DNA from: Candidatus Nanoarchaeia archaeon
GTDB taxonomy: Archaea > Nanobdellota > Nanobdellia > Woesearchaeales > GW2011-AR9
Direction of reading: 5' to 3'
DNA length: 57,227 bases
Assembly: GCA_035289385.1 (NCBI GenBank)
Contig: DATDXI010000031.1
Coordinates: 1-57,227, forward strand
Position numbers and translations under genes: made by a program. Numbering within the stretch: position 1 is the first letter of the stretch; each line of letters opens with the position of its first letter. Shown here piece by piece: positions 5,794-46,846 of this stretch. The notes beneath the pieces were generated by a model. That model worked only from the letters and a program-made list of their open reading frames with translations, made no database searches and was not told where the DNA came from.

Positions 5794-6162
5794 AACAATG
5801 ATGTCTAAAGAACATATCGAAAGAAACCTACTACTTGTCTTTGTTGGGATTATCTTCTGTTCGACTAACCAAAAAATAGACTAATTTGTAATAAATATGT
5901 GGCTACTATTAGTACTACTCTGATATACCTATTTTCATTAAAAAGGATTGACCTAAACAACACAAGACAAGGGTTCCGTTTAGTAAACGACTATTTAATA
6001 TCAGCTGTTCATTGTCGGGTGGAAATAGCCTCTTTTAAACCAAAAAAAACAAAAAGTTTATTAATAACCATTCTTTTTAAGACTTAACATGATCCCAAGT
6101 GTTCCTACGGGGACGCTTGATGAACCTATTTTCTAAAAGAGATTGGTGGTAGGTAATTTTTA

Positions 6163-6735: not shown

Positions 6736-6843
6736 AGTTTTATTTTTCCTCCCTTCTTTTACCAGCCTTCACTTACCACCTGATAGTTGAACGGAACCAT
6801 AAACAAGAAAAACTTATAAACCCCATCCATCTTCTAAAAAAAC

Positions 6844-6951
6844 ATGGCCAGAAAGATACATACAAGGATCAAAAGAAGGATGGGTATCCGCTCCAATAAG
6901 TCTGGGGCTAAAGAATTAAAAAGAAGAAAAATGAAACGGATGAAGCTTTAA
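6844..6951 (+). CDS. possible small, highly basic protein (35 aa)
   Basis: Encodes MARKIHTRIKRRMGIRSNKSGAKELKRRKMKRMKL*. A CTTATAAA box lies about 25-30 nt upstream, the same spacing as at other genes here. Too short for the ORF track. Confidence 0.35.
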   Translation: MARKIHTRIKRRMGIRSNKSGAKELKRRKMKRMKL

Positions 6952-7038
6952 GCTTATTCTTGCTGCTTCTTTAGTAGTGCATACTTTACGTTATATCTGC
7001 ATAATATTTATAAATCGCTTCCTTTTATAGGGGATAGT

Positions 7039-7782
7039 ATGGATTCTCCTGAAATGCAAAGTGGAATTGTGGAACAGCATTTGAAGAATGATCACCCATT
7101 ATTAAGGAAATATACTAATGGACGATTATCTTCAGGTGGTTCTGGTCCAGATTTTTTTTCTGCTTCATCTGAACTTTGTGGTTTACCAAATATTGATAAT
7201 AATAGTTATCTGCCCCATTTTGAGTTTAATGTTGGTTCTGCTTATCATATTGAAGTTAGTAGGGAAGTTATGTCTGGAGAAACAATATATCATAAGTCAG
7301 ATGGTATCCTCATGCACTTAAAATCGAGAGATGGAGACGGTCTAATTGAGGTTTGTTTTCCAACAGTATCAGGATTGTTTGATTTACGAAATTTGTCAAG
7401 ACAAGGTTCACTTTTAACTATCCCGCAAGTAAGAGACGAAGATAGAGAAAGGTTACCTATCGATAAAAGCCAAGTTCATGCTGGTTTTTATTTTAGGGCT
7501 TCTTCAACTTCGTATGGACAATTAGTTGCAAGAATGGAGATTGATCATCCTGCAGCAGAAGAAGTAATAATGGCATACTTAGAAACAATCGATCGAAGAT
7601 TTGCTGATTATAGCCAACTCCAGCAACATTTTACTGAAAGAGACGATAAAGGTAATCGTTTGTGGGAAGATCAAAATCAGCAGTCAAGGGGCTATAATAG
7701 AAAAAGAGGAAGATTACATAACGCTTTATTTGGTGAGCTGGCTGATATTTTAAAGAAAGCTGATCTTGAATTAAACCGCTAA
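7039..7782 (+). CDS. hypothetical protein (247 aa)
   Basis: Long ORF with an ATATTTATAAAT box about 30 nt upstream. No family recognised. Confidence 0.6.
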   Translation: MDSPEMQSGIVEQHLKNDHPLLRKYTNGRLSSGGSGPDFFSASSELCGLPNIDNNSYLPHFEFNVGSAYHIEVSREVMSGETIYHKSDGILMHLKSRDGDGLIEVCFPTVSGLFDLRNLSRQGSLLTIPQVRDEDRERLPIDKSQVHAGFYFRASSTSYGQLVARMEIDHPAAEEVIMAYLETIDRRFADYSQLQQHFTERDDKGNRLWEDQNQQSRGYNRKRGRLHNALFGELADILKKADLELNR

Positions 7783-7813
7783 GCTTTTATACTCCTAAAT
7801 TTTAGTTCTAGCT

Positions 7814-9052
7814 ATGGAGATAGGTGTTTTACTCAATTTTCTGCTGGCGATAGCTCTTGGTGCCTTGATAGGATTAGAGCGGGAATATGCACGATATCGG
7901 AATAAAGGTCATGCCTATGCAGGTATCCGTACATTTCCATTGATAGCCTTAGCCGGGGCATTAGCTGCTCTTCTTGGCCAAGCCTTGTCGATATGGATCC
8001 TGCTCATAAGCATTGGCTTTATGGGAATATTGGTTGTTGTTGCGTATTATGTGACCGCAGAATTAGATAGGACACATATCGGGACGACATCAGAAATAGC
8101 CGGCTTCATCACTTTTTTTATAGGTATCTTGACGTTCTACCAACAATATCTGTTAGCAGTTGCTTTAACGGCGCTGACGGCATTGATATTGTATGCAAGG
8201 TCATTGCTGCATCATTTTGCAGAAAAACTAACGAGGAAAGAGATGCTGGATACTATCGTTTTTGTGCTATTAGCATTTGTGATCCTTCCTTTGCTTCCTA
8301 ACAATTCTTATGGCCCTTTTGAGATATTTAACCCCTATATCACCGGGCTGATGGTTGTTTTGATTTCTGGAATAAGCTTTGTGGGTTATGGGTTGATGAA
8401 ATGGTTTGGAGAACGAGGTATTGGCTTATCTGGAATTTTTGGTGGGCTTGTCAGCAGTACGGTCGTTACGATGGATCTTGCCCAGAGAAGCAAGAAAGAA
8501 AAGGCGTTTTATGCGTTGGCTTTAGGAGTGATTTTAGCTAACGGTATCATGTTTATCCGGGTCCTGTTTGAAGTGTTTGTAGTTCATCGTCCTCTATTTG
8601 TTAAGCTGCTCATTCCACTTCTGGTGTTGTCTGGTATAACAGCAATCTTCTCTTTCTTCCTGTGGAGAAAAATAAAGAAAGTGAAGAGTAAGGTGGCGTT
8701 ATCTTCACCATTAGCATTAGTCCCGGCGGTAAAATTTGCTTTATTTTTCTCTTTCATGATTGCCGTTGTCAAAGTAACAGAAATGTACCTTTCATCGAGA
8801 GGTGTTTATATCGTCAGCTTCTTTTCTGGATTTGCTAATGTTGATGCCATTTCGTTATCTTTATCCCAATTAGCACGAGGCAACTTAGCGGTAGATGTTG
8901 CTGCTCGTGGTATTATCATTGCCGCTTTAACAAACATAGCGGTAAAAGGCGGCATGGCTTACTGGTTTGGTGGCAAGGCGTTTAGAAATCTGGTTGTGGG
9001 CTTATTTTCGGTGTTAATAGTCTTTGGGATTGTGATGATGATCTGGCTGTGA
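7814..9052 (+). CDS. MgtC/SapB-family membrane protein with a DUF4010-like extension
   Basis: 412 aa, polytopic. The N-terminus ALGALIGLEREY...GIRTFPLIAL is MgtC-like. Confidence 0.75.
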   Translation: MEIGVLLNFLLAIALGALIGLEREYARYRNKGHAYAGIRTFPLIALAGALAALLGQALSIWILLISIGFMGILVVVAYYVTAELDRTHIGTTSEIAGFITFFIGILTFYQQYLLAVALTALTALILYARSLLHHFAEKLTRKEMLDTIVFVLLAFVILPLLPNNSYGPFEIFNPYITGLMVVLISGISFVGYGLMKWFGERGIGLSGIFGGLVSSTVVTMDLAQRSKKEKAFYALALGVILANGIMFIRVLFEVFVVHRPLFVKLLIPLLVLSGITAIFSFFLWRKIKKVKSKVALSSPLALVPAVKFALFFSFMIAVVKVTEMYLSSRGVYIVSFFSGFANVDAISLSLSQLARGNLAVDVAARGIIIAALTNIAVKGGMAYWFGGKAFRNLVVGLFSVLIVFGIVMMIWL

Positions 9053-16431: not shown

Positions 16432-18078
16432 TCAGCTAGGACAGACAACATTACTCAGTTCTTCACCCCATGTTTTCTTATTTTCCGAATAATCGATGGG
16501 GCATTCTATCACCACTGGCCCTTGCAGTTGGAATGCTTTTTCAAGAATCTTTAAGAGGTCAGATGCTTTTTTAACCTTAAAACCATGTGCACCATAACTT
16601 TCCGCATATTTCACAAAGTCAGGATTACCATAATCTAAAGAAAAGTCGGCATAATTCATCTGCTGTTGTTTCCATTTGATGAATCCGTAGGCGTTATCAT
16701 TCAGGATCAATATGACCACATTGAGTTTCAGCCGCACAGCCGTTTCTAATTCCTGTGAATTCATCATAAAACCACCATCTCCCACAACTGCCAGAACTTT
16801 TTTGTAAGGGTTGATCAATTTTGCGGTCATCGCTGAGGGCAACCCAGCACCCATGGTAGCTAGCGTGTTGTCTAGCAAGAATGTTCCAATGCCATATGCT
16901 GGATAATGTCTTGAAAACCATAATTTGTAGATGCCATTGTCTAAGCAGAGGATGTCTTCTTTCCCTAATGCTTTTCGGCAGTCAGCAACTATTCTTCTGG
17001 GCTTTAGAGGATAGGAATCATCATCGTTCTGATTCTTAAATAGTTTTTTTTCCAGCTCTTTTTTTAGCTGCTCTTCAAACGATCCTTCATTTCTGAATGA
17101 CTGGAGCGCTTCTCTTAAAGAATCAAGTGAGGTAGCTATATCCCCAATAACTTCACCGATAGGGGCGTAAAAGGTATCATTTCTTGCTGGGGTAAAATCG
17201 ATATGCAGTATCTTTTTCTTCCCTTCAGCATTCCAAACATAAGGAGGATATTCTGCCGTTGAATAGCCTACGGTAATGATCAGGTCTGCTTTTTCCAGAA
17301 GGCAATTGACATAATCTTTTTTATGGATGCCGAATGAATGGAGGCAATTATGGTGGTCTGCCCGTAAAACTCCTTTTCCCAGCTGAGTGTGGACAACATA
17401 AAGGTTTGTGGCATCACAAAATTGTTCCAATGCTTCCTTAACTCTCGTTCTTTGTGCTCGGCTGGAGACTATGAGAACTGTTTTCTTTGCTTTCTTTATT
17501 TCATCTGCAGCAATTCTGATACTCTTGCTATCTGCTATCGGCCGGCGTAAGGCAATGACTGGTTGCGGGGTAAATCCTTTAACTTCTTCATCAGCAACAT
17601 CTTCCGGTAATTCTAGGTGACAGACACCTTGCCGTTCTGATGTTGCGAGCTTGAATGCATTTCTTACTTCTTTAGGGATGCTTTTTGGGCCAAGAATCTG
17701 GGTTGTATATTTAGTTATAGGGCGCATCATCTCTACAACGTTAACCACTTGAAAATTCCCTTGCCAATTTTCCCGGATGCCTTTCTGCCCAGTGATGACG
17801 ACTAATGGCATACCCCCTAACTGGGCATGAGCAACACCGGTAACAAGATTCGTCGCTCCGGGGCCGAGAGTTGACATGACCACACCTGCTTTTCCTGTCA
17901 ATCGCCCATACGTAGCAGCCATAAAGGCAGCAGCCTGTTCATGCCGGTTGACGATAACTTTGATCTTTGATTTTCGTAACGCTTCCAGAACATGCAGATT
18001 TTCTTCTCCAGGAACGGCAAAGATATACTCTACTTTCTCTTCTTCAAGACATTGTACGAATAGATCAGCTGCTTTCAT
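16432..18078 (-). CDS. thiamine-diphosphate enzyme, acetolactate synthase-like large subunit
   Basis: 548 aa with a three-domain TPP enzyme layout and the TPP motif GDGGFMMN...NDNAYG. Confidence 0.85.
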   Translation of the reverse strand: MKAADLFVQCLEEEKVEYIFAVPGEENLHVLEALRKSKIKVIVNRHEQAAAFMAATYGRLTGKAGVVMSTLGPGATNLVTGVAHAQLGGMPLVVITGQKGIRENWQGNFQVVNVVEMMRPITKYTTQILGPKSIPKEVRNAFKLATSERQGVCHLELPEDVADEEVKGFTPQPVIALRRPIADSKSIRIAADEIKKAKKTVLIVSSRAQRTRVKEALEQFCDATNLYVVHTQLGKGVLRADHHNCLHSFGIHKKDYVNCLLEKADLIITVGYSTAEYPPYVWNAEGKKKILHIDFTPARNDTFYAPIGEVIGDIATSLDSLREALQSFRNEGSFEEQLKKELEKKLFKNQNDDDSYPLKPRRIVADCRKALGKEDILCLDNGIYKLWFSRHYPAYGIGTFLLDNTLATMGAGLPSAMTAKLINPYKKVLAVVGDGGFMMNSQELETAVRLKLNVVILILNDNAYGFIKWKQQQMNYADFSLDYGNPDFVKYAESYGAHGFKVKKASDLLKILEKAFQLQGPVVIECPIDYSENKKTWGEELSNVVCPS

Positions 18079-18144: not shown

Positions 18145-19527
18145 TTAAGGATTATATATATTAATTGGCTTGATGTTGACAAATTCTTTGATCCCATAAT
18201 GGCTTAATTCTCGGCCATAGCCGCTTTTCTTTATTCCTCCTAATGGTAATAGGGGATGGCTTTTTGAAGTGGAATTGAGGAATACTCCTCCCGCATTGAT
18301 CTTTCTGGCAAGACTTTCTCCTCGCCTTACATCATTTGTCCAGATGGATGCATTCAAGCCAAATTCAGAGGTGTTTGCTATACGGATTGCTTCATCATCA
18401 CTCTCTACAACGATCACTGGTGCAACTGGTCCAAAGGTTTCTTCCGTTACCACGTTCATGGTCGGTTTCGTATGGGTTATGACCGTTGGCTCAAAGTAGC
18501 AGCCAGGCTCTCGACGTTTTCCTCCTGCTGCAATGGTTGCTCCCTGTTTGATGGCATCTTGAACAAAGTTTTCCATATCAATAACTGCTTGCTTGTTGAC
18601 TAATGGCCCTATCTCTGTTTCTGCCTTCATAGGATCTCCAATTTTTAGCTTTGCCATGTTTTTTGCAAATAGTTGGCTGAATTTCTCTGCGACCTTTTTA
18701 TGAACAATAAAGCGTTTTGCCCCGATGCACATCTGTCCGGTATTAGAGATCCTGCCATGAGTTGCTCCCAGAGCAGCTTTTTCTACATCAGCATCATCTA
18801 AGACAATGAAAGGATCTGAACCGCCTAATTCCAAGACTGTTTTTTTGATATGCTTTCCGGCTTCAGCAGCAATCTTTGATCCTGCGCCAACAGAGCCAGT
18901 TAAGGAGACCGCTTGAACAACATCAGAGGCGATAAGTGCTGATGTTGTTTCATGATCGATGATCAGGCTTCTAAAGATATCTTTTGGGAAGCCAGCTTCC
19001 TGGAAAGCTTGCTCAATAGCTAAGGAACTTCCAGTGACATTTCGGGCATGTTTTAGGAGAATGGCGTTACCTGCAACTAATGGAGGAAGACCAACTTTGA
19101 TGACTTGCCAAAAAGGATAGTTCCAAGGCATGATGATGAGTACGGTGCCTAACGGCTCAAAGGTGATAAGATGCTGTTTTCCATCGGCAGTAATCTCTTC
19201 TTCTTTCAGCCATTGTTGTGCATGTTCTTGTAGTGTGTCACACAATGATGCGCATTTTTCAACTTCCGCTAAGGATTGCGTAATGACTTTCCCCATCTCT
19301 GTTGTCATCAGTTCTGCGTATTTCTGTTTATTCTTTCGAAGAACTAGAGCAAGTTTATTGACAAACTGAAGGCGTTTTTGTACGGGGAGCTCTTTCCACT
19401 CTTGAAAAGAAAGACTGGTAGATTTGGCAATGGATAATGCTTCACTCTCTGGCATGATATGATATTCAGCGATAGCTTGTTCAGTTGCCGGGTTGATGGT
19501 TGAAAATGTTATGGTATCTTTCTTCAT
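18145..19527 (-). CDS. NAD(P)-dependent aldehyde dehydrogenase (succinate-semialdehyde DH-like)
   Basis: ELGGSDP and the catalytic Cys in GQMCIGAKR. 460 aa. Confidence 0.9.
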   Translation of the reverse strand: MKKDTITFSTINPATEQAIAEYHIMPESEALSIAKSTSLSFQEWKELPVQKRLQFVNKLALVLRKNKQKYAELMTTEMGKVITQSLAEVEKCASLCDTLQEHAQQWLKEEEITADGKQHLITFEPLGTVLIIMPWNYPFWQVIKVGLPPLVAGNAILLKHARNVTGSSLAIEQAFQEAGFPKDIFRSLIIDHETTSALIASDVVQAVSLTGSVGAGSKIAAEAGKHIKKTVLELGGSDPFIVLDDADVEKAALGATHGRISNTGQMCIGAKRFIVHKKVAEKFSQLFAKNMAKLKIGDPMKAETEIGPLVNKQAVIDMENFVQDAIKQGATIAAGGKRREPGCYFEPTVITHTKPTMNVVTEETFGPVAPVIVVESDDEAIRIANTSEFGLNASIWTNDVRRGESLARKINAGGVFLNSTSKSHPLLPLGGIKKSGYGRELSHYGIKEFVNIKPINIYNP

Positions 19528-19623
19528 GGTATCTCCTGATTGAAGAAATCAATTCATCTATTAAAAGATATCTGTCAGGTTGTAATGATGATAAAGAATA
19601 GTTAAACCTGTTTTCATTACGTC

Positions 19624-20229
19624 CTATCTTTTCTGTCCCACTATCCAAACTGCAGAGTGTTTATGCTCACCTATAACCGGTAGATGATCTTCAACGATCT
19701 CACCTTCCAATCTCTCTTTTATATCAATATCTCTAAATAATTGATCAATTTCATCTAAGCTAGCCAATACTACTTCCTCCGTTCCATGTGAATCTGGAAG
19801 GGGTATTTTATCGGTCAGTGTGGTAAATAATATATATCCTTTTGGTCTAACACTACTCTGTAATTGTCTATGGACTTCCACTCTTTGATATTGAGGAAGG
19901 CAGTGAAAGAGGCCATATGATACCAAAGCGTCAAACTCTTCTCTCATGAATCCTGGTAGATCATCACACTGGTTATAATTTCCTTTAGGCTCTTTTCCTG
20001 CTCTTTTAAATCTCTCTCGTAATCCTTGTAAGGCAAATGGTGATTGATCAAATCCCACTACCTCAAATCCTTCTTGTTCTAAGAATAAGGCATTCTTGCC
20101 ATCTCCACAACCAGCATCTAAAACTCTTCCTCCTGCTAAAAATTCGCCAATTCTTTTAACAAGTCTCCCGGGTTGTTCACCCCATAAGATATTATCTTCT
20201 CTAGCTGCATATAAATGATCATAAGACAT
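19624..20229 (-). CDS. class I SAM-dependent methyltransferase
   Basis: Motif I VLDAGCGDGKNA. 201 aa. Confidence 0.85.
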   Translation of the reverse strand: MSYDHLYAAREDNILWGEQPGRLVKRIGEFLAGGRVLDAGCGDGKNALFLEQEGFEVVGFDQSPFALQGLRERFKRAGKEPKGNYNQCDDLPGFMREEFDALVSYGLFHCLPQYQRVEVHRQLQSSVRPKGYILFTTLTDKIPLPDSHGTEEVVLASLDEIDQLFRDIDIKERLEGEIVEDHLPVIGEHKHSAVWIVGQKR

Positions 20230-20279
20230 CCAATCAAAATATAGTTAATACCTTATAAATATTGTTTAGTATAGACACA

Positions 20280-21449
20280 TCACCCCTTCTCTCCACTCAG
20301 TACCTTTACTATCCTAAATAGTCCTATCCAGAAGGGGCTGAGGAAGAGGGTTAAGCCGATAGTGACGATAACGAGCTGGTAGGAAAATATAGGGAGCAAG
20401 CCCAGCTTTAATCCCATGGCGGCAATGATGAAACTGAATTCTCCAATCTGGGCAAGCATCGATCCGGAATACAAACTTTCTGGCCAGCTTTCACCAAAAT
20501 AGCGGAAGATGACGGAGTTGATGAAGGTATTGATCAGGAAAACAACGGCTACTAATAAGGCAATCAAACGAATATTCTCTTTTAGAAAGGAGGCATCGAG
20601 AAGCATGCCTATGGAGGCGAAGAACAGTGCTACAAAGAGCACCCTAAATGATTGAAGGCTGCCTTTAACCCAATGCGTTTCTTTCGTTTTAGCGATGACC
20701 ATCCCTGCTAGAAAAGCACCAAGAGCGGCAGAAAGATGGAATAAGGATGCTAATGCTGCCAAGCCAAAACAAGCGATCAAGGCAGCAAAGATCTGTAGTT
20801 CATAATCCACTTGGAAGCGATTCTTGAAGGGGATGGTTATCTCTGAATGATTGACGAGATATTTTGCCAACAGGACGAATAATGTTACTCCGATACATTG
20901 AAGAAATAGGGCTGAGAAGGTGATGTTTTCTGATCCCAATAATGAAACGATGATCAGCAATGGGGCAACAGCGATGTCCTGAACAAGCAGGATGCTGACG
21001 ATCTGCTTTCCTCTCTTATGCTGAAGCTCTTTTTTATCTTCAAGGATTTTTATTAAGATGGCAGTACTGCTTAAGCTGATGACAAAACCAAGCAGCAGAA
21101 CTTGGCTGGCACTCCAGTGAAAAAAGTAGCCAAATAAGGACATCATGGCAATACTCAGCAGGATCTGAAGATTTGTTCCCATGATAGCTGTACGCCAGTT
21201 GGAAAGGATCTCTGGCAGTGATACTTCCATTCCGATAAAGAATAGTAGCAAGATAATTCCTATTTCTCCCAGCTTGGAGATAGCATCATTGCTGGTAACC
21301 CAGCCTAATCCGGATGGACCGATAAGCATGCCGGTAAGGATATAGGCGATGATCGATGGCTGTTTAAAGTAACGGAGAATACCTCCTGTGATGACGATGA
21401 TTAGCGATCCCATCAGGATTGTTAAAATCAAAGAATTTTCCGCTGCCAT
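20280..21449 (-). CDS. cation:proton antiporter (CPA2/Kef-type membrane domain)
   Basis: 389 aa, about 12 TM helices, typical Na+/H+ exchanger family sequence. Confidence 0.85.
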   Translation of the reverse strand: MAAENSLILTILMGSLIIVITGGILRYFKQPSIIAYILTGMLIGPSGLGWVTSNDAISKLGEIGIILLLFFIGMEVSLPEILSNWRTAIMGTNLQILLSIAMMSLFGYFFHWSASQVLLLGFVISLSSTAILIKILEDKKELQHKRGKQIVSILLVQDIAVAPLLIIVSLLGSENITFSALFLQCIGVTLFVLLAKYLVNHSEITIPFKNRFQVDYELQIFAALIACFGLAALASLFHLSAALGAFLAGMVIAKTKETHWVKGSLQSFRVLFVALFFASIGMLLDASFLKENIRLIALLVAVVFLINTFINSVIFRYFGESWPESLYSGSMLAQIGEFSFIIAAMGLKLGLLPIFSYQLVIVTIGLTLFLSPFWIGLFRIVKVLSGEKG

Positions 21450-21463
21450 CGTGGGCAGATGAA
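21394..21463. repeat. 70-bp direct repeat, copy A (covers the antiporter start codon and first 19 codons)
   Basis: 64/70 identical to 23130-23199 by hand alignment. Confidence 0.9.
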
Positions 21464-21669
21464 AGCAGGTCGTATTTATATTTTTTTGTTTTGGGTAAAT
21501 AAGAGATCTGGCACAAAAATAAATGGTAAAAACTCATCAGATATTTTCTCTGGAACAGTAAGTATTCTTTACAAGGTGTGTGGTTATTCTTTACAGCTCA
21601 AAAACTTACAGAAATATTTAAATAGTTCTTACTTATCTTACTTGTAAGAATTTACAAAAGGAGATTAAA

Positions 21670-21918
21670 ATGCCACTATTAGAAATGAGAACTGCAACGG
21701 TAACAGAGAAAGGTCAGATTGCTATCCCTAAAAGTATAAGAAAACTGGAGGGTTTTAAAGAAGGAACAAAAGTGGCAATTCTAGCGTTTAACAACAAAGT
21801 AGAACTGCGGCCATTAAAGCAATTTAGTGAAAAGATGTTTTCTGCTTTAGCAAGTGAAAAATCTTTAGCAAAAGACTGGCTAACAAAAAAAGAGGATGAG
21901 GCATGGAAAGACTTGTAA
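21670..21918 (+). CDS. mazE: AbrB/SpoVT (MazE-type) antitoxin
   Basis: TEKGQIAIPKSIRK swapped-hairpin motif. Overlaps the toxin gene by 16 nt. Confidence 0.8.
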   Translation: MPLLEMRTATVTEKGQIAIPKSIRKLEGFKEGTKVAILAFNNKVELRPLKQFSEKMFSALASEKSLAKDWLTKKEDEAWKDL

Positions 21919-22235
21919 GAGGCGATGTTGTCGTTCTTCTTTTTCCCTTTTCGGATCTTAGCTCATCACGCAAACGACCGGCAGTTGTCGTGGCAAATCT
22001 GACTGGTGATGATCTCATCTTGGCACAGATAACAACGGCCTCTGCTCGTAGTGATGAATATGCAGTTTCTCTTGAGGCAAAAGATTTTCAGAAAGGAAAT
22101 CTGGCCATATCAAGTCTGGTTAGACCTAACAAGCTTTTCACTGCTGATATTTCAATCATTTCTTCAAAAATAGGTACTCTAAGAGAAGATAAAATTAAAG
22201 AAATCCAAAATTCTTTAGTGAACATGTTTAATTAA
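21903..22235 (+). CDS. mazF: MazF/PemK-family endoribonuclease toxin
   Basis: RGDVVVLLFPFSD...KRPAVVV...LILAQITT, typical of PemK/MazF. Confidence 0.85.
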   Translation: MERLVRGDVVVLLFPFSDLSSSRKRPAVVVANLTGDDLILAQITTASARSDEYAVSLEAKDFQKGNLAISSLVRPNKLFTADISIISSKIGTLREDKIKEIQNSLVNMFN

Positions 22236-22302
22236 ACACTATCAACTAACTACAAAGCTTAAAAATGTTAGAGATAACGATAGATAACTAGTACGAAGAC
22301 TA

Positions 22303-22486
22303 GTACGTATTTAGTTCCACGACAAAAATAGTGGCAGATCGTAAAATCCAGCCTGACTTTACGTGTAAAGTAATGATAAAGTATTTATTTTAAGCTAAAG
22401 TCAGGCAACTAGACATATCTCACGAAGCTCTTAATGGATTTTACCTCTTGACCAAGCCACTATTTTCAACCGAACTAAATGCGTAC
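22303..22486 (+). mobile_element. MITE-like element, copy 2 (184 bp)
   Basis: Termini GTACGTATTTAG / CTAAATGCGTAC. Perfect 8-bp duplication GAAGACTA at 22295-22302 and 22487-22494. Confidence 0.95.
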
Positions 22487-22530
22487 GAAGACTAGAAAAT
22501 AATATAAGTGAAGGTGTTATTGCTTTTGTT

Positions 22531-23127
22531 ATGGTTCTCGTTGATGGGAAGGAATTTCTGGATGCAAATAGGCTTCTGCTTGATTCATACAGATTAGCCA
22601 GAATGGTCCTGTTGTCAGAATTTAAACCGACGTTTATGATCGGCATCTGGCGCGGAGGCACGCCGATAGGCATCGCGGTCCAAGAATATTTAGCAGCCCA
22701 TGGTGTTTCTACTGATCATATTGCAATTAGAACTTCGGGATACCGTGCAGGAATTGACCAGCGGGAAGATGCTGTTGCCGTCCATGGTTTAGAATATATG
22801 GTTGAGCATGCTAATGCTTCTGACCGTCTGCTGATCGTCGATGATGTTTGGGATAAAGGCAGAAGCATCCAAGCTGTTAAGGAAACCTTGGAACGACGGA
22901 TGCGCAGGAATATTCCCGCGGACATCAAGGTGGCGACAATCCATTATAAGCCTAACCGGAATGAAATGAACGGAAAACCAGACTTTTATCTCTATGAGAC
23001 AGATGCCTGGTTGATTTATCCGCATGAATTGCATGGTCTTTCTACAGAGGAGATCAGGAAAGGCAAAGGGTATGCGGTCGCTGATCTGATGGTTCCAGAG
23101 CGGCTTGTTGGGAAGGATACTCCGTAA
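22531..23127 (+). CDS. phosphoribosyltransferase (purine PRT-like)
   Basis: PRPP-binding loop LLIVDDVWDKGRS. Confidence 0.8.
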   Translation: MVLVDGKEFLDANRLLLDSYRLARMVLLSEFKPTFMIGIWRGGTPIGIAVQEYLAAHGVSTDHIAIRTSGYRAGIDQREDAVAVHGLEYMVEHANASDRLLIVDDVWDKGRSIQAVKETLERRMRRNIPADIKVATIHYKPNRNEMNGKPDFYLYETDAWLIYPHELHGLSTEEIRKGKGYAVADLMVPERLVGKDTP

Positions 23128-23129
23128 TC

Positions 23130-23199
23130 ACGATGTTCAGTGATCCTATCAGGATTGTTAAAATCAAAGAATTTTCTGCTGCCATCGTGGGCTGATGAA
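23130..23199. repeat. 70-bp direct repeat, copy B (orphan copy of the antiporter 5' end)
   Basis: The minus strand reads ATG GCA GCA GAA AAT..., giving MAAENSLILTILIGSLNIVIT against the true MAAENSLILTILMGSLIIVIT. No gene body follows. Confidence 0.9.
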
Positions 23200-23240
23200 T
23201 AATAAGAAAGAGACAATAGATAATAAAAAAGAAATAGAGC

Positions 23241-23834
23241 TTATCTCTTCACCGCAGCAAATCTCTTCTGCACAACATCCCAGTCAATAGCATTAACGAA
23301 AGCAGTAATGTAGGCAGCCTTATCAGTATTATATTCAGTAATGTAGGCATGCTCAAAGACATCCATAACCAATAATGGGATAGCTCCTGCTAAATGGCCA
23401 ACATCATGCTCATTGACCCAGACATTGAACAGCTTGTCACCTATCGGATCATAATACATAACTACCCAGCCGATACCTCGCATGCTTCCCACGGAAGTAA
23501 ACGCTTTCATCCGCGCTTCAACAGATCCTAAGCTTTCTGCCATCTTTTTAGCTAAAGGAGAATTTGCTGGAAGAACTTTTTTCTCCTTACTCATATTTCC
23601 AAAGTAGAGTTCATGAAGTCTCATACCATTGAATTCCCAGCCAAATCTTCTTTTTAGCTCCGCAAATTCAGGAGTAGCTGCCTTCCCTTCTTTGATCATA
23701 GTTCCTAAGATGTCTACAAGCTTATTCGTATTATTGACATAGCCAAGGTACAGCTTAAAGTGTGTCTGTAAGAGCTTGTCGCTAAATCCAGGTGTTCCCA
23801 AAAGATGGGAATAATCTTGCTCTTTGTATGTCAT
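23241..23834 (-). CDS. sod: Fe/Mn superoxide dismutase
   Basis: DVFEHAYI signature, 197 aa. 1-nt gap to the upstream Prx gene. Confidence 0.95.
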   Translation of the reverse strand: MTYKEQDYSHLLGTPGFSDKLLQTHFKLYLGYVNNTNKLVDILGTMIKEGKAATPEFAELKRRFGWEFNGMRLHELYFGNMSKEKKVLPANSPLAKKMAESLGSVEARMKAFTSVGSMRGIGWVVMYYDPIGDKLFNVWVNEHDVGHLAGAIPLLVMDVFEHAYITEYNTDKAAYITAFVNAIDWDVVQKRFAAVKR

Positions 23835-23835
23835 C

Positions 23836-24558
23836 TTAGATCTTCCCCACTAAGTGTAATCCTGGCTTCAATGTTTCCTTGCCTGGCTGCCAGTTTGCTG
23901 GACAGACTTCTCCGCCATGTTCACGGACAAATTTCGCTGCTTTGATCTTTCTTAGAAGTTCTGCGCTGCTTCTGCCGATGCTGTTGTCATGGATTTCAAA
24001 TGCTTTTAAAACTCCATCAGGGTCGATGATGAATGTTCCACGTAAGCTTAGTCCTTCATGATGGATATAGGTGCCGTAAGCCTTGCAGATACTTCCCGTA
24101 GGGTCAGCGACCATGGGAAACTTGATTTTTTTGATGGTTGGTGAGTTATCCCACCATGCTTTATGGACGAAAACGGTGTCTGTGGATATGCTTAACACTT
24201 CAGCGCCTAATTTCTTGAATTCATCATAATTATCTGCTAAATCTCCCAGTTCTGTTGGGCAGATAAAGGTGAAATCGGCAGGATAAAAGACTAATACCAC
24301 CCATTTTCCACGATAATGGTCAAGCCTTACTTGCTTTACTTCATTGTTTTGGAAAGCCTGAGCCGCAAAATTGGGGGCCGGCCTATTGATCTCTAACCAT
24401 TCTGGAGATTGTTCTTTACAGCATCCTTCTTCCATCGTTTCTTCTTTACAACATCCTTCTTTCATTGTTCCTTCTTGGCAACATCCTTTTTCCATTGTTT
24501 CTTCTTTACAGCATCCTACCATTGTATGTTCCTCCACAGCATCTACTTGGCCCTTCAT
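23836..24558 (-). CDS. typical 2-Cys peroxiredoxin (AhpC/Prx1-like) with a Cys-rich N-terminal repeat extension
   Basis: Peroxidatic FTFICPTE and resolving EVCPANW motifs. N-terminal 4 x GCCKEETMEK-type repeat. Confidence 0.9.
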   Translation of the reverse strand: MKGQVDAVEEHTMVGCCKEETMEKGCCQEGTMKEGCCKEETMEEGCCKEQSPEWLEINRPAPNFAAQAFQNNEVKQVRLDHYRGKWVVLVFYPADFTFICPTELGDLADNYDEFKKLGAEVLSISTDTVFVHKAWWDNSPTIKKIKFPMVADPTGSICKAYGTYIHHEGLSLRGTFIIDPDGVLKAFEIHDNSIGRSSAELLRKIKAAKFVREHGGEVCPANWQPGKETLKPGLHLVGKI

Positions 24559-27529: not shown

Positions 27530-30097
27530 ATGAAAATAATACCGTTAATGATTTCTTTGTTGGTTGTGCTGCTGTCAGTTGCTGCTTTGGCTGAAGTCGG
27601 TGATGGTAGTCCTGGAGATATAACTATAACTGATGAAGGAAGTGATAGTGGAGATGAAGAAGGTATTGATGATGCTTTGACTGGTACTGATGATGTTCTT
27701 CCGAGCTCAGATGATAGTGCTGTTGATTCAGAAGATTCTGATGATTCTATTATGGATGATGATTTTGGATCAATTTCTGATGGACAAAATGATGCATCTG
27801 CTGAAGAAGCAGGCAGTGATGATGAATCTAGTAATGAAGGATCAGATTCATTTGATGAAGAATTTTCTAGTGTTATTGAAGAAGATATCTATCAGGATGT
27901 AGATGATGTCGCTTTAGAAGGGGAGGCTGGATTGACACCAGACAGCTCATTCTATGTTTTGGAAAATCTTGTGGAATCTGTTCTTGTTGGTGATGATCCG
28001 GTGAAAGCCTTAGAGTATAAAGAGGAGAAGATCTTAGAATTACAGGAGATGGTTGATCAAGGAGATGAAGAAGCTGCGGAGAAAGTATTGGAAAGAGTTG
28101 AGAAGTATAATGAGATCATCAAGAGAGAAGTTTCTCCAGATATGGAAAAGCAAGTGAGGGAAAGCAGTAAGGCGGTTAAAGGTATTTTGGAAGGATTAGA
28201 TTTAGAGGGTGATGAGTGGGAGGATATTCAAGAAAAGGTTGACGAGAATGCTAAAGAAGAAGATAAGATAGCCTTAGCTGCGAAAGTCTCTAAGAAAATA
28301 TCTGAGCTCTGTGAAGCTCTTTCGTCATTAGATCCATTGGAGTATTCAAAGGTTTGCCGGACTGGTGATGAAGCCCCTCAGTGGAAAAGAGACCAAGATA
28401 GGGAGTTGACGGCTGAACAGGAAAAGGAAGCAAAGAAATTTTTTGAGATAATGTCTAGCTGTTATCAGAATCCAGCAGAATGTAAATGTGAGGATATTTC
28501 CATAAAACCATTTGCGGAGCAATGTGCAGTTATTGCTCCTTTGGCTGCGGAATGTGAATCTGGCAATGAAGAAGCCTGTAAGAAGATGGATGATATCGGT
28601 GATCCCATTGACTTACTGCCAGATTATCTCCAAGATGTTATGGCAGATGTCGAAGATAGATATGGAGAAGCGAAGCATGACTTATTTATGCCTCCTGAAT
28701 GTGTTGAGGAAGGCGCTTTAACCAAAGAAGCCTGCTTTAAGGTCATGTTTCGCTTAAATGCGCCTCCAGAATGTCAGGAAGCATTAGAAGCGGGAAAAAT
28801 TGATCCAAAAAATGAGCGTGAAGCACGGGCAGCATGTGAAGAAATTATGTTTACGGCTAATGCCCCTGAGGAATGTCTTGAAGCAGGATTGAAAGATCAT
28901 CGTGACTGTGAAAGATTCATGTTCAAGCTTGATGCACCACAAGAGTGTTTGGATGCGGGCTTAACCGGTTCAGGCAGAGATGACTGGAAGAAATGTGAAG
29001 CCATCCGTTTTAAGCTTGATGCTCCAGAAGAATGTGTTGAAGCTGGCTTAACTGGTTCTGGCAGGGATGATTGGAGAAAATGTGATGCCATCCGATTTAG
29101 GCTAGATGCTCCACAGGAATGTCTTGATGCTGGAATAGATGGAACAGGAAAAGAGGATTGGAAGAAGTGTGAGCTCATCAAATTTAAACTAGAAGCGCCT
29201 CAGGAATGTTTAGATGCAGGGTTAACTGGTTCTGGCAGAGACGATTGGAAGAAATGTGAGAAGATACGATTCCTCCTAGACGCGCCAGAAGAATGTAAGC
29301 AGTTTGCTGATAAGCGTGATCCTTGGAAGGCCTGTCAACCAGTGCAGTTTAAGATGGATGCTCCTCAAGAATGTCTAGATGCTGGTCTTGATGGGACAGG
29401 GAGAGATGACTGGAAGAAGTGTGATAAGATCCGGATGGCCATGGAACAGCAGCAGCGTCCAGAAGGTGATCAGCGTGAAGGAGACTTTAGGCCAGATGAT
29501 CGGCGTGGAGAATTTCCTGGAAAAGAAGGTGAGAGGAGAGGTGATTTCCCACAGGAAGATCAGCGTGGACAACAGCAAGAAGATCAATGCCGTGATTGTT
29601 CTCAGAAATGTGGAGATAGGAGATGGAATTGTAATAATGGGCAATGTGAGTGCTTTGATGATGGGGATGATAGAGATGAAAGTCCTTCGGGGGATGATCA
29701 TCCAAGTGATTCTGGCAGCTTTGATTCTGATGATAGTCGTGATGATAGTGGCTCCAGCAGTGATTCTGGGAGTTCAGATTCAAGTGATGGTGGGTCTTCT
29801 GATAGCGGCAGTTCTGGATCAAGTGGTGATTCTGGGAGTTCAGATTCAAGCGATGGTGGATCTTCTGATAGTGGCAGTTCTGGATCAAGTGGTGATTCTG
29901 GATCAGGAGATAGCGGTTCTTCTGGCGGAGATTCTGGCTCAAGTGGAGATAGTGGCGGCTCAGAAGCATCTAGTGAGAGTTCCGGCGATAGTGTTACCGG
30001 ATCTGCCGTAAGAATCTTTAACCCAACCGGATCGGCGGTAAAGATATTTGATCCTTTAGGAGAGAAAAGATTTAGGGAACTTGGAAGATTCAGGTAA
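27530..30097 (+). CDS. secreted, highly acidic, cysteine-repeat protein (855 aa)
   Basis: Signal peptide MKIIPLMISLLVVLLSVAALA, a D/E/S-rich N-terminal region, 8-9 repeats of about 33 aa (F-K-L-D-A-P-Q-E-C-L-D-A-G-L-T-G-S-G-R-D-D-W-K-K-C) and an S/G/D low-complexity tail. Confidence 0.8.
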   Translation: MKIIPLMISLLVVLLSVAALAEVGDGSPGDITITDEGSDSGDEEGIDDALTGTDDVLPSSDDSAVDSEDSDDSIMDDDFGSISDGQNDASAEEAGSDDESSNEGSDSFDEEFSSVIEEDIYQDVDDVALEGEAGLTPDSSFYVLENLVESVLVGDDPVKALEYKEEKILELQEMVDQGDEEAAEKVLERVEKYNEIIKREVSPDMEKQVRESSKAVKGILEGLDLEGDEWEDIQEKVDENAKEEDKIALAAKVSKKISELCEALSSLDPLEYSKVCRTGDEAPQWKRDQDRELTAEQEKEAKKFFEIMSSCYQNPAECKCEDISIKPFAEQCAVIAPLAAECESGNEEACKKMDDIGDPIDLLPDYLQDVMADVEDRYGEAKHDLFMPPECVEEGALTKEACFKVMFRLNAPPECQEALEAGKIDPKNEREARAACEEIMFTANAPEECLEAGLKDHRDCERFMFKLDAPQECLDAGLTGSGRDDWKKCEAIRFKLDAPEECVEAGLTGSGRDDWRKCDAIRFRLDAPQECLDAGIDGTGKEDWKKCELIKFKLEAPQECLDAGLTGSGRDDWKKCEKIRFLLDAPEECKQFADKRDPWKACQPVQFKMDAPQECLDAGLDGTGRDDWKKCDKIRMAMEQQQRPEGDQREGDFRPDDRRGEFPGKEGERRGDFPQEDQRGQQQEDQCRDCSQKCGDRRWNCNNGQCECFDDGDDRDESPSGDDHPSDSGSFDSDDSRDDSGSSSDSGSSDSSDGGSSDSGSSGSSGDSGSSDSSDGGSSDSGSSGSSGDSGSGDSGSSGGDSGSSGDSGGSEASSESSGDSVTGSAVRIFNPTGSAVKIFDPLGEKRFRELGRFR
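29762..29893 (+). repeat. 66-nt tandem duplication inside the S/G/D tail coding region
   Basis: Units 29762-29827 and 29828-29893 differ at 3 positions (hand alignment). Confidence 0.85.
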
Positions 30098-31516: not shown

Positions 31517-31780
31517 ATGAATTACGATTTGGAATTAGAAAAAGTCATTCAAGAGATCAAGAAAGCGGATGCTAAGTTAGTATGTCTGCAGCTGCCGGAT
31601 GGCTTAAAGCCAGAAGCGAAGGCTATTGAAGCGGAAATAACTAAGAAAACAGGTGCAAAAGTGCTTATTTGGCTGGGAAGCTGTTTTGGTGCTTGTGATG
31701 TTCCTGTTGGCTTAAAGAATTTAGGGATTGACTTATTATTCAGTTGGGGACATAATACATTTAGAAAAGAGATGTGGTAG
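31517..31780 (+). CDS. dph2: Dph2 (diphthamide synthesis radical-SAM enzyme), N-terminal domain fragment
   Basis: 87 aa. LVCLQLPDGLKPEAKAIEAEI...GSCFGACDV...FSWGHNTF aligns with domain 1 of archaeal Dph2 as I recall it, including the first cluster Cys. TATA-like ATTTTTAAAATA box upstream. Confidence 0.8.
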   Translation: MNYDLELEKVIQEIKKADAKLVCLQLPDGLKPEAKAIEAEITKKTGAKVLIWLGSCFGACDVPVGLKNLGIDLLFSWGHNTFRKEMW

Positions 31781-31811
31781 GTTTTTTATAGTCATTTATT
31801 ATTCTCCATGC

Positions 31812-32819
31812 ATGCAAAAGAGGTTGTTGATAGTGTCTATATTGTTGATAGGAATGCTGCTCTTCCTTCTATCCTCTTGTAATGATAATGGAAATGAACT
31901 CCCTCAAAATGCTCCTTCTACCGTTGATAAAGAAGCGTTGTATGATCAAGCGATCAAGAAATTAACAGGGAACGAATCGGTCAATACTACACGTCTTGAT
32001 AAGCGCTTTACTGCCCTGGAACAGCAATTGTCTGGATTTGTTGATGGTGATGAAGAGATGGACATTGCCGAATTTACGAGAATAAAGATCGCGATGGATT
32101 ATCTTGAAGGAGAAGGATATGATCCTGGAAAAATTACCCGTCTTGAAACGATGTTTAAAGCGGCATATGCTGAAGCAGAAGGAAAGATCGAAGATATCGA
32201 TGGAAGTTTAGCTGACAGGTATAATGAGCTGAACAGGACGCTGCAACGGGTTTCTTCCGGTGATGACGTTTTGACACTACCACGCTATCTGGAGATGGAA
32301 AGAGGGATCAATGAACTGGAAAAAGATGGCTATATGATCGCTTCCAGGATCGCCAGCCTTCGTACTGGGCTTTTGCAGGCTGTTCTTCATGAATTGGAAA
32401 CAGCATTAATTCATTTTGAAGTGCCGGAAGAAGTTGGCGTAGAGCAATTGCCAGATGAAGAAGATGCTGTGGAAGGTGGTAGTGATGGAGATGAAAGCGA
32501 TGCTGTTGATGAAAGCGAAACAGATGTTGCTTCTGACGTTCCAGAAGAGTCTCTTCAGCCTGTGATACGTTTAGTTGATGGTGGCTTAGACAAAGAGAAA
32601 ATGACGGTAAAAGTTGGTCAAACCGTCATTTTTGAGAATGATCGCCAGGGGCATTATAAGCTGGGCTTTGTGGTTGGAAACAGGGTCTGCCGTGATCTCA
32701 AGAGCGGATTTTTTAATAGTGGAGAGAGTTATAACTGGACGTTTGTTGAGGAACAAACATGCTGGGTATCTGATGGGATATTTACGACAGAGGCGGTGAA
32801 GATTGTGGTGATAGGTTGA
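31812..32819 (+). CDS. lipoprotein with an acidic linker and a possible cupredoxin-like C-terminal domain
   Basis: The start is set at MQKRLLIVSILLIGMLLFLLSSC (lipobox). The C-terminus VKVGQTVIFENDRQGH... is beta-sandwich-like (tentative). Confidence 0.6.
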   Translation: MQKRLLIVSILLIGMLLFLLSSCNDNGNELPQNAPSTVDKEALYDQAIKKLTGNESVNTTRLDKRFTALEQQLSGFVDGDEEMDIAEFTRIKIAMDYLEGEGYDPGKITRLETMFKAAYAEAEGKIEDIDGSLADRYNELNRTLQRVSSGDDVLTLPRYLEMERGINELEKDGYMIASRIASLRTGLLQAVLHELETALIHFEVPEEVGVEQLPDEEDAVEGGSDGDESDAVDESETDVASDVPEESLQPVIRLVDGGLDKEKMTVKVGQTVIFENDRQGHYKLGFVVGNRVCRDLKSGFFNSGESYNWTFVEEQTCWVSDGIFTTEAVKIVVIG

Positions 32820-32832
32820 TTTTGGCTTTGAG

Positions 32833-33684
32833 TCATAACTTTTGTTGTGGCTTCTTTTTTGAGGAATTAGCTATCTTTTCTTCATCGGATTTTACTGTCT
32901 TCTGCAATTTTTGAATGTCCTCTTCAGGAGGCAGATCTTCTGGCCTAATACCGCTTTTTGCGAGGAGTTTTCTGACATCCTTATTATTTTTAACATGTTC
33001 TCTAGTTATTTTTGGTTCTTTCTCCATATCTTCTTTCTTAACATTAAAGTTTGTTATTTCTGTTGCTAAGTTTTTGGCAGTTATCGTAATTGTTGGTAAG
33101 AAATCAGCTAAAGGCCTTTTCTGTGGAATTTGTAACTTCTTCTTCATCTCCAAAGTAGAAAATCCGCCAAATAATGCTTCATCTCCCTTGCTTCTGATTC
33201 TGGCGAAACCTGCTTCATCTACACCTCGTTCATAGATAAGTTTTGAGAGTTCTGTTTCAGAAGCTACTAATTTTTGCCTTGCTGTTAATCGTTCCATGAG
33301 AGCTATCCTTTGCTCTATCAACTCTTGTTTTCTGGTTTGTACTGCAAAATAGCTTTGGGCAAATGCGATCTGCTCTTTCCTAGGGTCACCATTCTGGGCT
33401 ATAAGATAACAGGCATAGCGAGTGAGCATAAAATTGTCAATCTCTTTAGAAGCCCCTTTGGGCATAGCTATCGTTTTGTTGACGCCAACAAAATGATCAT
33501 TGATTTCCTGTCCAGCAGTTTTACAGGATGTTTTTGCCTTCTCTATCACATTCAGAAAGTTTCTCCATTCATCATAATCTAAGAGTTTCTGAAGATCACG
33601 GGCATACCAGAATTCTATACCATCTGCATTATGAGCATACTCTTCAAAGGTCTTTTGTAAGGTGGCGATAAGTGCTAATTTCAT
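32833..33684 (-). CDS. dinD: DNA-damage-inducible protein D (DinD)-like protein
   Basis: WYARDLQKLLDYDEWRNF...LTRYACYLIAQNGDPRKEQIAFAQSYFAVQTRKQE closely parallels E. coli DinD as I remember it. Confidence 0.8.
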   Translation of the reverse strand: MKLALIATLQKTFEEYAHNADGIEFWYARDLQKLLDYDEWRNFLNVIEKAKTSCKTAGQEINDHFVGVNKTIAMPKGASKEIDNFMLTRYACYLIAQNGDPRKEQIAFAQSYFAVQTRKQELIEQRIALMERLTARQKLVASETELSKLIYERGVDEAGFARIRSKGDEALFGGFSTLEMKKKLQIPQKRPLADFLPTITITAKNLATEITNFNVKKEDMEKEPKITREHVKNNKDVRKLLAKSGIRPEDLPPEEDIQKLQKTVKSDEEKIANSSKKKPQQKL

Positions 33685-33786
33685 GGTCTATCTTTTAAGG
33701 TGGTTTTCGGATTCTCTGTAGACTTTACCTTCCAGCTTCTTCTTTTATATTATAGAGTATTACTCCTTTATATATTCTACCCGCAC

Positions 33787-33850
33787 TTGCAAGAAATTAG
33801 GAAACTACCTAATTTCTGCACAGAAATATGATCTTTGTCATATTTCTTGT
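33787..33850. repeat. two adjacent bulged hairpins (TGCAAGAAAT-type stems)
   Basis: TGCAAGAAATTAGG-aaacta-CCTAATTTCTGCA is followed by ACAGAAATATGA-tctttg-TCATATTTCTTGT. The first stem is shared with the insert of MITE copies 3 and 4. Confidence 0.75.
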
Positions 33851-33882
33851 GTCCAGTGGCTAGTGGGTATACATACTTCTCA

Positions 33883-33896
33883 GCAACGTTTATAAA
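33883..33896 (+). promoter_or_regulatory. BRE/TATA-like box (GCAACGTTTATAAA)
   Basis: About 24 nt upstream of the ATG at 33920, giving the C-terminal dph2 fragment its own promoter. Confidence 0.55.
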
Positions 33897-33919
33897 ACAG
33901 TATTGATATCTTTACAAAT

Positions 33920-34615
33920 ATGAAAACGATCTTTTTGGAAGCGCCGTATTTAGGTAAGGTGCGGCTCTGTAAGAAGACTCTTGATTATCTTGCGAAAAAA
34001 AAAGTGAAAACTGTTGCCTTGTATGCAGCAGTGCAGTTCTGTAATAATCTTGAATTGATTAAGCAGCAATTAGTGGATGCTGGCGTTACTGTCATCTCCT
34101 CAAAGCCAAAGAGGACGGATGCCCATCAGCAGATTCTTGGCTGTGATGTCTATGAAGATTCGTTGCATCTTTCTGCTAAAGAACGAGAGAATATCGATGC
34201 TTTCTTATACATTGGTGATGGTAAATTTCATCCATTAGCTTTATTGCATGGGCAGAAAGCAGAAATAATATGTGATGATCCTATCGCTCAACGGATGGAG
34301 ATTCTTTCTCCCACTCTTATCGATCATATCAAAAAGAAGCAGAAAGGGGCATTGATAAAGTTTTATGCTCATCAAAACATAGGGGTTATTATCTCTACAA
34401 AGCCTGGACAGCAGTTCATGAAGAAAGCTTTTTCACTTGAAGAGAAGTATCCCCAGAAGAAATTTTATTATTTTGTCGATGACCAGATATCCTTTGACCA
34501 GCTGGAAAATTTTCCATTCATCGATGTCTGGGTGAATACGGCTTGCCCCAGGATAGGATTGGATGACATCGAGAAGTTCAGGAAAGGTGTTGTGAATCTC
34601 AGGGATGTGGTGTAG
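33920..34615 (+). CDS. dph2: Dph2, domains 2-3 fragment
   Basis: 231 aa. KTIFLEAPY..., ILGCDVY, YIGDGKFHPLAL and VNTACPRIGLDD align with the remainder of archaeal Dph2, including the second and third cluster Cys. Confidence 0.85.
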   Translation: MKTIFLEAPYLGKVRLCKKTLDYLAKKKVKTVALYAAVQFCNNLELIKQQLVDAGVTVISSKPKRTDAHQQILGCDVYEDSLHLSAKERENIDAFLYIGDGKFHPLALLHGQKAEIICDDPIAQRMEILSPTLIDHIKKKQKGALIKFYAHQNIGVIISTKPGQQFMKKAFSLEEKYPQKKFYYFVDDQISFDQLENFPFIDVWVNTACPRIGLDDIEKFRKGVVNLRDVV

Positions 34616-44941: not shown

Positions 44942-45010
44942 AATAAGAGTTATTTAGAATCCATTTAAAAGATTACCTCTTTTTGAGTCTATATATAGAT
45001 TCTGCTAACT

Positions 45011-46179: not shown

Positions 46180-46245
46180 TTATTACTTCTAAGTAACATT
46201 TATAAACTACACCTCTTTCAAGCACGTTGAGGTTAATCCTTATCG

Positions 46246-46770: not shown

Positions 46771-46846
46771 ATCATGTTTCCATTGCAAGGAGTAGGAATT
46801 CAGACCCAACAAACAATTTAAATAGATTTAGAGATTCTTTTTGGAT

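Follow-up and report, generated by a model that had tools for sequence, protein, structure and literature searches.

A repeated gene start at the antiporter locus

In an uncultured archaeon (Candidatus Nanoarchaeia, Woesearchaeales), contig DATDXI010000031.1 of assembly GCA_035289385.1 carries the beginning of a cation:proton antiporter gene twice, once as the functional gene start (copy A) and once, in direct orientation, as an orphan 5' stub (copy B). Between the two lie a mazEF toxin-antitoxin (TA) module, a miniature inverted-repeat transposable element (MITE), and a phosphoribosyltransferase (PRT) gene; beyond copy B follow the superoxide dismutase and peroxiredoxin genes sod and prx (Table 1). 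The whole 57,227-nucleotide (nt) stretch is hereafter termed the window. A first-pass annotation of its sequence had taken this arrangement for the footprint of site-specific integration into the antiporter 5' end; the findings detailed below instead point to recombination of a more ordinary kind.

Pfam searches and alignment of the MITE family bear out the gene content previously listed for the bracketed segment, i.e., mazE, mazF, the MITE, and the PRT gene. The mazE and mazF frames overlap by 16 nt, forming the adjacent pair of small AbrB/MazE antitoxin and PemK/MazF toxin genes that characterizes a type II TA module. The antiporter matches TIGR00932 (CPA2 subfamily) at E=2.7e-59 with 201 bits, under the model cutoff of 238.3 bits, and the PRT has a weak match to TIGR01203 (HGPRTase).

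A repeat search of the window delimits the duplication to an ungapped block of 76 nt, identical at 68/76 positions; the 70-nt repeat noted initially (64/70 identical) is real and is contained in this longer block. Copy A holds the antiporter start codon, as had been stated, together with 14 nt upstream of this ATG (at 21449) and 21 codons rather than the 19 first counted. Copy B had been placed 3 nt after the PRT stop, yet this stop codon (TAA, 23125-23127) falls within it; the distance from copy B to the sod stop (23241), given as about 40 nt, measures 41 nt. A fuzzy search tolerating up to 18 substitutions yields two copies only in the window. Their identical 29-nt core (21412-21440 and 23148-23176) is bordered by mismatches at either side, and its two matches compare with zero expected from 100 shuffles. 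Sequences immediately flanking the block, whether on its outer or inner side, align locally no better than shuffled controls do; the block thus has sharp ends. A gapped 10-nt extension was rejected as probably due to chance, given that it overlaps PRT codons kept in the closest homologue.

Exact-protein look-ups recovered the locus together with its repeat from no fewer than nine independent assemblies of differing sample origin, with identities of 99.3-99.9%. All same-species contigs carry the cassette, with both repeat copies present wherever a contig extends to them. Mosaic contigs do exist in this population, with one patch in contig L002 being identical to a sister species from the same sample, which would speak for a false duplication through misassembly or chimerism. 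However, the same structure recurs across differing assemblers and samples, the copies differ at 8/76 positions, and their longest identical run (29 bases) is shorter than the k-mers used. The chance that the repeat is an assembly artefact is thus next to nil.

Table 1. Features of the antiporter-sod region of the window (coordinates refer to the 57,227-nt stretch)
Feature	Coordinates	Strand	Evidence or remark
CPA2 family cation:proton antiporter, 389 aa	20280-21449	-	PF00999 (Na_H_Exchanger), E=2.5e-56
Repeat copy A, position -14 to codon 21 of the functional antiporter	21388-21463	-	Repeat family, codon table
Putative native antiporter promoter segment, A-rich tract plus TATAAATA	21464-21494	-	Not duplicated with copy B
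Spacer of unknown origin, native promoter to mazEF module	21495-21607		Window-specific
mazEF module, including 62 nt of upstream operator/promoter	21608-22235	+	Pfam MazE_antitoxin, PemK_toxin
mazE	21670-21918	+	PF04014
mazF	21903-22235	+	PF02452 (PemK/MazF)
MITE (22303-22486) plus target-site duplication GAAGACTA (22295-22302, 22487-22494)	22295-22494		Alignment of 6 family copies
PRT, HPRT-like, 198 aa	22531-23127	+	PF00156 (Pribosyltran); last codons and stop enter copy B
Repeat copy B, orphan antiporter 5' stub	23124-23199	-	Overlaps PRT stop; absent from sister species
41-nt spacer, copy B to sod stop	23200-23240		blastn of window against sister
sod, Fe/Mn superoxide dismutase	23241-23834	-	Pfam Sod_Fe
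prx, peroxiredoxin	23836-24558	-	Pfam AhpC/Prx

A conserved putative promoter lies beside copy A

In gene orientation, the 31 nt upstream of copy A (21494 to 21464) read CCAAAACAAAAAAATATAAATACGACCTGCT and place a TATA-like box some 25-32 nt upstream of the antiporter ATG. From this archaeal TATA-box geometry, we infer that the segment is the antiporter promoter. The segment is identical at 30/31 positions upstream of the orthologous antiporter of a sister species (see below) that has neither the cassette nor the orphan, and the upstream flank of copy B shows no similarity to it. Copy A and its sister counterpart are identical at 74/77 positions, the three differences all being synonymous; this divergence matches that found genome-wide and thus fits vertical descent. 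The two antiporters share 97% amino acid identity. In the simplest reading, promoter and copy A would be the vertically inherited, orthologous gene start, with copy B being secondary.

The location of the promoter bears on every mechanism in which DNA enters at the repeat. Whether by an integrase, a Campbell crossover, or a long target-site duplication (TSD), such an insertion would leave the original upstream DNA beside the distal copy; the conserved upstream DNA adjoins the proximal, functional copy A, opposite to this prediction.

For the site-specific integration originally proposed, the 1.66-kb segment would be an integrated element or its remnant, with attB at the antiporter 5' end, the repeats as attL and attR, and an integrase that was either lost or acts in trans. 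Phage 21 and e14, in icd, are integrative elements that target a gene end and supply its replacement. Direct repeats with an identical 29-nt core are present, as expected of such an event; TA modules are typical cargo; a tyrosine recombinase gene is encoded in the window (43097-43717); and targeting of a 5' end with replacement sequence is known for SXT/R391 elements in prfC (PMC2791158). However, the native promoter flanks the insert on the side opposite to that expected, the integrase is found neither in nor beside the segment (the XerA-like open reading frame [ORF] being 20 kb off), the segment is pieced together from separately mobile modules, and the corresponding slot of the sister species holds a different gene and no repeats. 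A degenerate pattern for the repeat motif hits nothing in IMG/VR and, in Joint Genome Institute (JGI) metagenome contigs, only the sister antiporter start. Moreover, the orphan mutates freely among strains and is thus not maintained as an att site. With four of the five defining features that we tested lacking, integration of this kind is quite improbable.

Three further candidates were tried and rejected. A transposase-generated TSD is contradicted by length, as 76 nt far exceeds the 8-9-bp TSDs of the local MITE, and it too would put the promoter at the distal copy. For a diversity-generating retroelement, Pfam reveals no reverse transcriptase in the segment, the mismatches show no specificity for adenines, and it is the in-gene copy that stays invariant. 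An RNA-mediated copy made from the transcription start is unsupported, since the TATA position would imply a near-leaderless mRNA for which -14 is not the start.

Strain alleles and decay of copy B

Across strains, copy A is invariant except for one single-nucleotide polymorphism (SNP) in contig L101. Copy B occurs as two alleles, B1 (the window and L101) and B2 (eight other assemblies), which are set apart, over a stretch of 48 nt, by eight substitutions and one 1-nt deletion. The minus-strand frame reported for the orphan ('MAAENS...') is indeed intact in this window, and in this window only; its ATG is ATA in L101 and in B2, and B2 is also frameshifted by the 1-nt deletion in codon 7. Start codon loss and frameshift are thereby combined in 8/10 assemblies, and a ninth (L101) displays ATG loss alone. 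By the state of these alleles, copy B is a decaying, apparently non-functional stub, and the 43-codon ORF at 23054-23185 should be annotated as a pseudogene fragment, not as a gene.

A function for copy B could nonetheless be imagined at the RNA level, namely that the PRT 3' untranslated region acts as an antisense RNA to the antiporter leader and codons 1-21, coupling antiporter translation to PRT/mazEF expression. Since the PRT stop falls within copy B, transcription of the PRT gene would extend into it and yield an RNA matching the complement of the antiporter 5' end at 68/76 positions, including a perfect stretch of 29 nt. However, this complementarity is eroded in most strains, with the deletion and substitutions of B2 interrupting the 29-nt stretch; a T-run in copy B (AATTTTC) may terminate archaeal transcription early; and there is no Rfam match here, the window as a whole containing neither tRNA genes nor Rfam matches. 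Such regulation is very improbable. We infer that no recombinase recognizes the repeat and that it has no present function.

Over 21 kb, the window and contig L001 differ at 24 positions, nine of them in copy B (P ~1e-16 for any one given 77-nt block). Since clustered SNP patches occur elsewhere, the one in L002 being identical to the sister, the B1/B2 dimorphism is best explained by an allele, either imported or old, that stems from an unsampled lineage likewise carrying the orphan. Gene conversion from copy A was rejected as the source of this polymorphism, the allele-specific states being novel and interleaved as opposed to forming A-like tracts.

Relative to their inferred ancestor, B1 has accumulated seven changes and B2 nine plus an indel, compared to the ~14-17 expected of a neutral sequence as old as the species split. 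This shortfall suggests that the orphan arose after the split in the window lineage, in keeping with its absence from the sister; i.e., it is probably younger than the split (P ~0.01-0.1).

As to the SNP patches themselves, that of L002 (~7300-7900; window 18229-18751) covers ~520 nt in the aldehyde dehydrogenase gene and is 581/581 identical to the co-occurring sister, owing either to recombination between the two species or to chimerism of the assembly. Two smaller clusters of SNPs are located at 17566-17593 and 18832-18868.

The slot between sod and antiporter in a sister species

The sister species (L094-L099; at least four assemblies) was located by means of a degenerate repeat pattern, via one JGI contig (L094), and its sod through a cluster look-up; nucleotide identity to the window is 87-90%, with a four-fold-site K of 0.43. 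Its gene order is pepF, prx, sod, a 310-amino-acid gene on the opposite strand, a MITE, the antiporter, an aldehyde dehydrogenase (Aldedh), and a thiamine pyrophosphate enzyme. Absent from this locus are mazEF, the PRT gene, the orphan copy, and the methyltransferase gene that follows the antiporter in the window. A mere 51 nt separate the sod stop from the 310-amino-acid gene.

Homology between window and sister ends at 23218 on the sod side and at 21494 on the antiporter side, which defines a window-specific segment of ~1.72 kb (21495-23217) that includes copy B. The spacer next to sod is accordingly composite, with 23218-23240 common to the sister sod 3' flank and 23200-23217 window-specific. 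The prx-sod pair (23241-24558) forms the conserved left frame of the slot, being present in the sister as well as in most archaeal (DPANN) and several bacterial (candidate phyla radiation) genomes among 80 GTDB loci surveyed, for which sod is 57-68% identical. These comparisons support the view that sod and the antiporter frame a variable, apparently insertion-prone slot.

Of the ancestral order prx-sod-antiporter put forward by the first-pass annotation, the sister shows that both sides frame the slot; direct adjacency, for which related genomes were to be searched, was found nowhere, be it in the sister, the 80 GTDB loci, or the contexts of two distant antiporter homologues. The latter (55% and 51% identity) have unrelated neighbors, and neither the antiporter, the PRT gene, nor mazEF is found within 10 kb of sod in any of the 80 loci. 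These distant antiporter, sod, and PRT relatives are too remote to polarize the event. No empty-site variant occurs among the same-species contigs, and no circular junction or empty site was recovered.

The slot gene of the sister (L095:10640-11572, minus strand) encodes a protein without Pfam or NCBIfam match and without homologue in the window. Downstream of the window antiporter, a TehB-like S-adenosylmethionine-dependent methyltransferase gene (19577-20291) takes the place of 42 nt in the sister; the antiporter is thus bordered on both sides by lineage-specific single-gene insertions.

Modules within the bracketed segment

On the evidence of boundaries and homologues, the bracketed DNA is a mosaic of modules that are mobile or were acquired independently, with separate histories, as opposed to one element. 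The mazEF module spans 628 nt and occurs with identical nucleotide boundaries in three genomic contexts, the two besides the window being L103-L110 (74.5% identity) and L111-L113 (85.7%, ungapped); by this recurrence, it is a discrete, evidently mobile TA module. The MITE (184 nt) has terminal inverted repeats GTACGTATTTAGTTC and an 8-bp TSD of its own, as defines this class of element. Its family numbers at least five copies in the window (the others near 1056-1198, 49336-49582, 52893-53126, and 56018-56196), and the sister has one copy at a different point, beside the antiporter promoter; no cognate transposase was identified for the family. The PRT gene is of housekeeping type. Its family is very large, with thousands of homologues at 55-70% identity, and the closest ones read (70% and 62%) both lie in unrelated chromosomal contexts. 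For the window-specific spacer segments, neither the sister nor any of the fetched loci offers a homologue, and none was found elsewhere.

Across all genes of the segment, Pfam detects only MazE, PemK, and Pribosyltran, confirming that no integrase is encoded there, as had been remarked. The sole recombinase in 57 kb is the XerA-like tyrosine recombinase ORF, located 20 kb away (206 aa, minus strand; PF00589, with a match to NF040815 under cutoff). Neither mazF nor the PRT has relatives in IMG/VR.

It is conceivable, if improbable, that the 1.66-kb segment is a miniature, integrase-less cassette caught at the antiporter 5' end, either through the 76-nt homology or by a trans-acting recombinase such as the XerA-like enzyme. 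The cassette would bring a new promoter and gene start, with the orphan being the displaced original. If true, this would amount to a gene-5'-end-targeting cassette system in DPANN archaea; no second instance of the cassette was found.

Elsewhere, the mazEF module resides in neighborhoods rich in TA genes. In L103-L107 (~6001-7700), it is accompanied by DUF2283/DUF4258 pairs, and in L111 (1462-8569) by two HEPN/nucleotidyltransferase pairs, which suggests TA-accumulating hotspots in these small archaeal genomes. The XerA-like ORF is followed by several ORFs without Pfam matches (44180-47656), and this region may be an integrated element or contain a truncated xerA.

Origin of the orphan copy

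We consider it somewhat better than an even chance that copy B is the scar of non-site-specific recombination, made as the islet was assembled beside the sod flank. Copy B would thereby be a stub at the sod-proximal border of a lineage-specific mosaic islet (mazEF, MITE, PRT), which would itself fill a variable slot having the conserved prx-sod pair on one side and the antiporter on the other. The orphan would have arisen through illegitimate joining of the PRT end of the islet to the sod flank. It could be a short copy, templated or ectopic, of the antiporter start close by, or else what a partial duplication or a displaced gene copy has left behind. The last two PRT codons and the stop lie in or against the stub, and the PRT exceeds its closest homologue by two residues; this overrun points to a PRT end fused directly to antiporter codon 21/22, i.e., to an illegitimate junction, which would have removed or replaced the original PRT stop codon. 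In these terms, copy B amounts to an ordinary scar of recombination within a mosaic islet.

Several points weigh against this account. We know of no documented case of templated patches at junctions in archaea. The orphan alleles are ~10% apart, compared to ~0.1% in the flanks, which necessitates a third lineage, as yet unsampled, that bears the same orphan. The dating of the orphan uses 77 nt and equates the orphan rate with the four-fold-site rate. The three oldest coding changes, found in both alleles, are all synonymous (3/3; P ~0.02), hinting at a source in a functional, slightly diverged allele, and this bias would agree more readily with displacement through incoming DNA than with local copying. 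Finally, the antiporter is present in two lineages only, leaving no outgroup to polarize the slot, and the sister might have lost an orphan of its own.

Displacement is central to the alternative of homology-anchored insertion without an integrase, either as the Campbell crossover of a circular fragment or as the homology-facilitated illegitimate recombination (HFIR) of a linear one. Its setting would be an ancestral antiporter located 41 nt downstream of sod. Incoming DNA comprising the PRT gene through mazEF, a promoter, and an antiporter 5' end would have recombined via ~77 nt of homology, such that copy B would be the displaced original 5' end, with copy A and its promoter having arrived with the insert; the sister would later have swapped the islet and shed the orphan. 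The observed topology agrees with this, in that the anchor is directly duplicated on either side of foreign DNA and a single tight illegitimate junction connects the PRT end with codon 21/22. Beyond the oldest orphan changes, 6/8 of all A-B coding differences are synonymous (P ~0.006-0.02), as expected if both copies once resided in functional alleles. Experiments in E. coli have demonstrated single-crossover integration with duplications of 109-950 bp (PMC3240628), orphan gene stubs at type VI secretion system (T6SS) and Rhs loci have been proposed to result from HFIR (PMC5361080), and recombination patches from the sister species are present in this population.

However, such an insertion requires the promoter to be cargo, whereas the sister possesses it (30/31) without cargo or orphan. 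It further requires an orphan older than the species split, yet the observed divergence is about half of that predicted. Copy A and the whole antiporter diverge from the sister as the neighboring genes do, without sign of a foreign origin, and the sod-antiporter adjacency from which this scenario departs is seen in no genome. Homology-anchored insertion is on balance unlikely, though it is the main alternative.

Whichever the source of copy B, the locus chiefly illustrates how genome flux proceeds on a small scale in an uncultured archaeon of DPANN type from groundwater. The DPANN affiliation is indicated by neighboring genes (diphthamide synthase, XerA-like recombinase) and by the labels of the nearest homologues (Woesearchaeota, Nanoarchaeota, Aenigmarchaeota). 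Co-occurring sister species have a prx-sod...antiporter frame in common and carry different slot genes; TA modules and MITEs move independently in the slot, and short recombination patches cross lineages. One event of this flux has left a scar that can be dated, the orphan stub. Neither a new type of mobile element nor a new function is revealed.

Resemblance to known systems

Among described systems, the C-terminal orphans of Rhs and contact-dependent inhibition loci and the T6SS effector-immunity arrays of Vibrio cholerae (PMC5361080) also display a stranded gene fragment beside acquired DNA at a variable locus. There, too, the process does without an integrase, a homologous junction is paired with an illegitimate one, and the stubs decay. 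The present stub differs in that (i) it is the 5' end of a housekeeping transporter as opposed to a 3' toxin tip, (ii) it is single, without an array or a selective logic such as immunity retention, (iii) it resides in a DPANN-type archaeon, and (iv) judging by where the promoter is located, it may be a secondary copy as opposed to the displaced original. Campbell integration at E. coli lacZ (109-950 bp; PMC3240628) similarly results in a direct duplication that brackets foreign DNA without a site-specific recombinase; it predicts, however, that the original upstream region stays at the distal copy, whereas the conserved promoter here is at the proximal one.

As with SXT/R391 in the prfC 5' end (PMC2791158), direct repeats containing a gene start bracket accessory DNA that includes a TA module; unlike those elements, the locus has no integrase, conserved element, empty attB, or second occurrence, its cargo is mosaic, and the repeat is not conserved among strains. 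The affinity to strain-variable genomic islets lies in a conserved frame (prx-sod and antiporter-Aldedh) with differing content in the sister species, and in occupants typical of such islets, i.e., TA modules and MITEs, represented here by the mobile mazEF and the MITEs. A 76-nt duplicate of a gene start at the border, however, is not a regular islet feature.

Neighboring features

The N-terminal region of prx (24412-24547) consists of tandem 30-nt repeats encoding Cys-rich decapeptides (CCKEETMEEG-like), with a variable number of repeats; the product has 240 amino acids in the window, 228 in other strains, and 218 in the sister. Further along (27530-30097), an 855-amino-acid, secreted-looking protein is encoded whose ends are acidic and of low complexity and whose interior repeats a Cys-containing 'DAPxEC...GxxDWKKCE' unit about eight times. 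Its gene is the most diverged between the two species (~82% nucleotide identity), with shifts in repeat register.

At 31517-34615, homology to diphthamide synthase (Dph2-like) is split between a short N-terminal ORF and a 231-amino-acid C-terminal ORF. Between these lie an ORF of ~335 amino acids and a Bro-N domain gene (32833-33684, minus strand), the latter in this species only; a homologue of this gene is located directly downstream of sod in two other DPANN genomes (L017 and L056).

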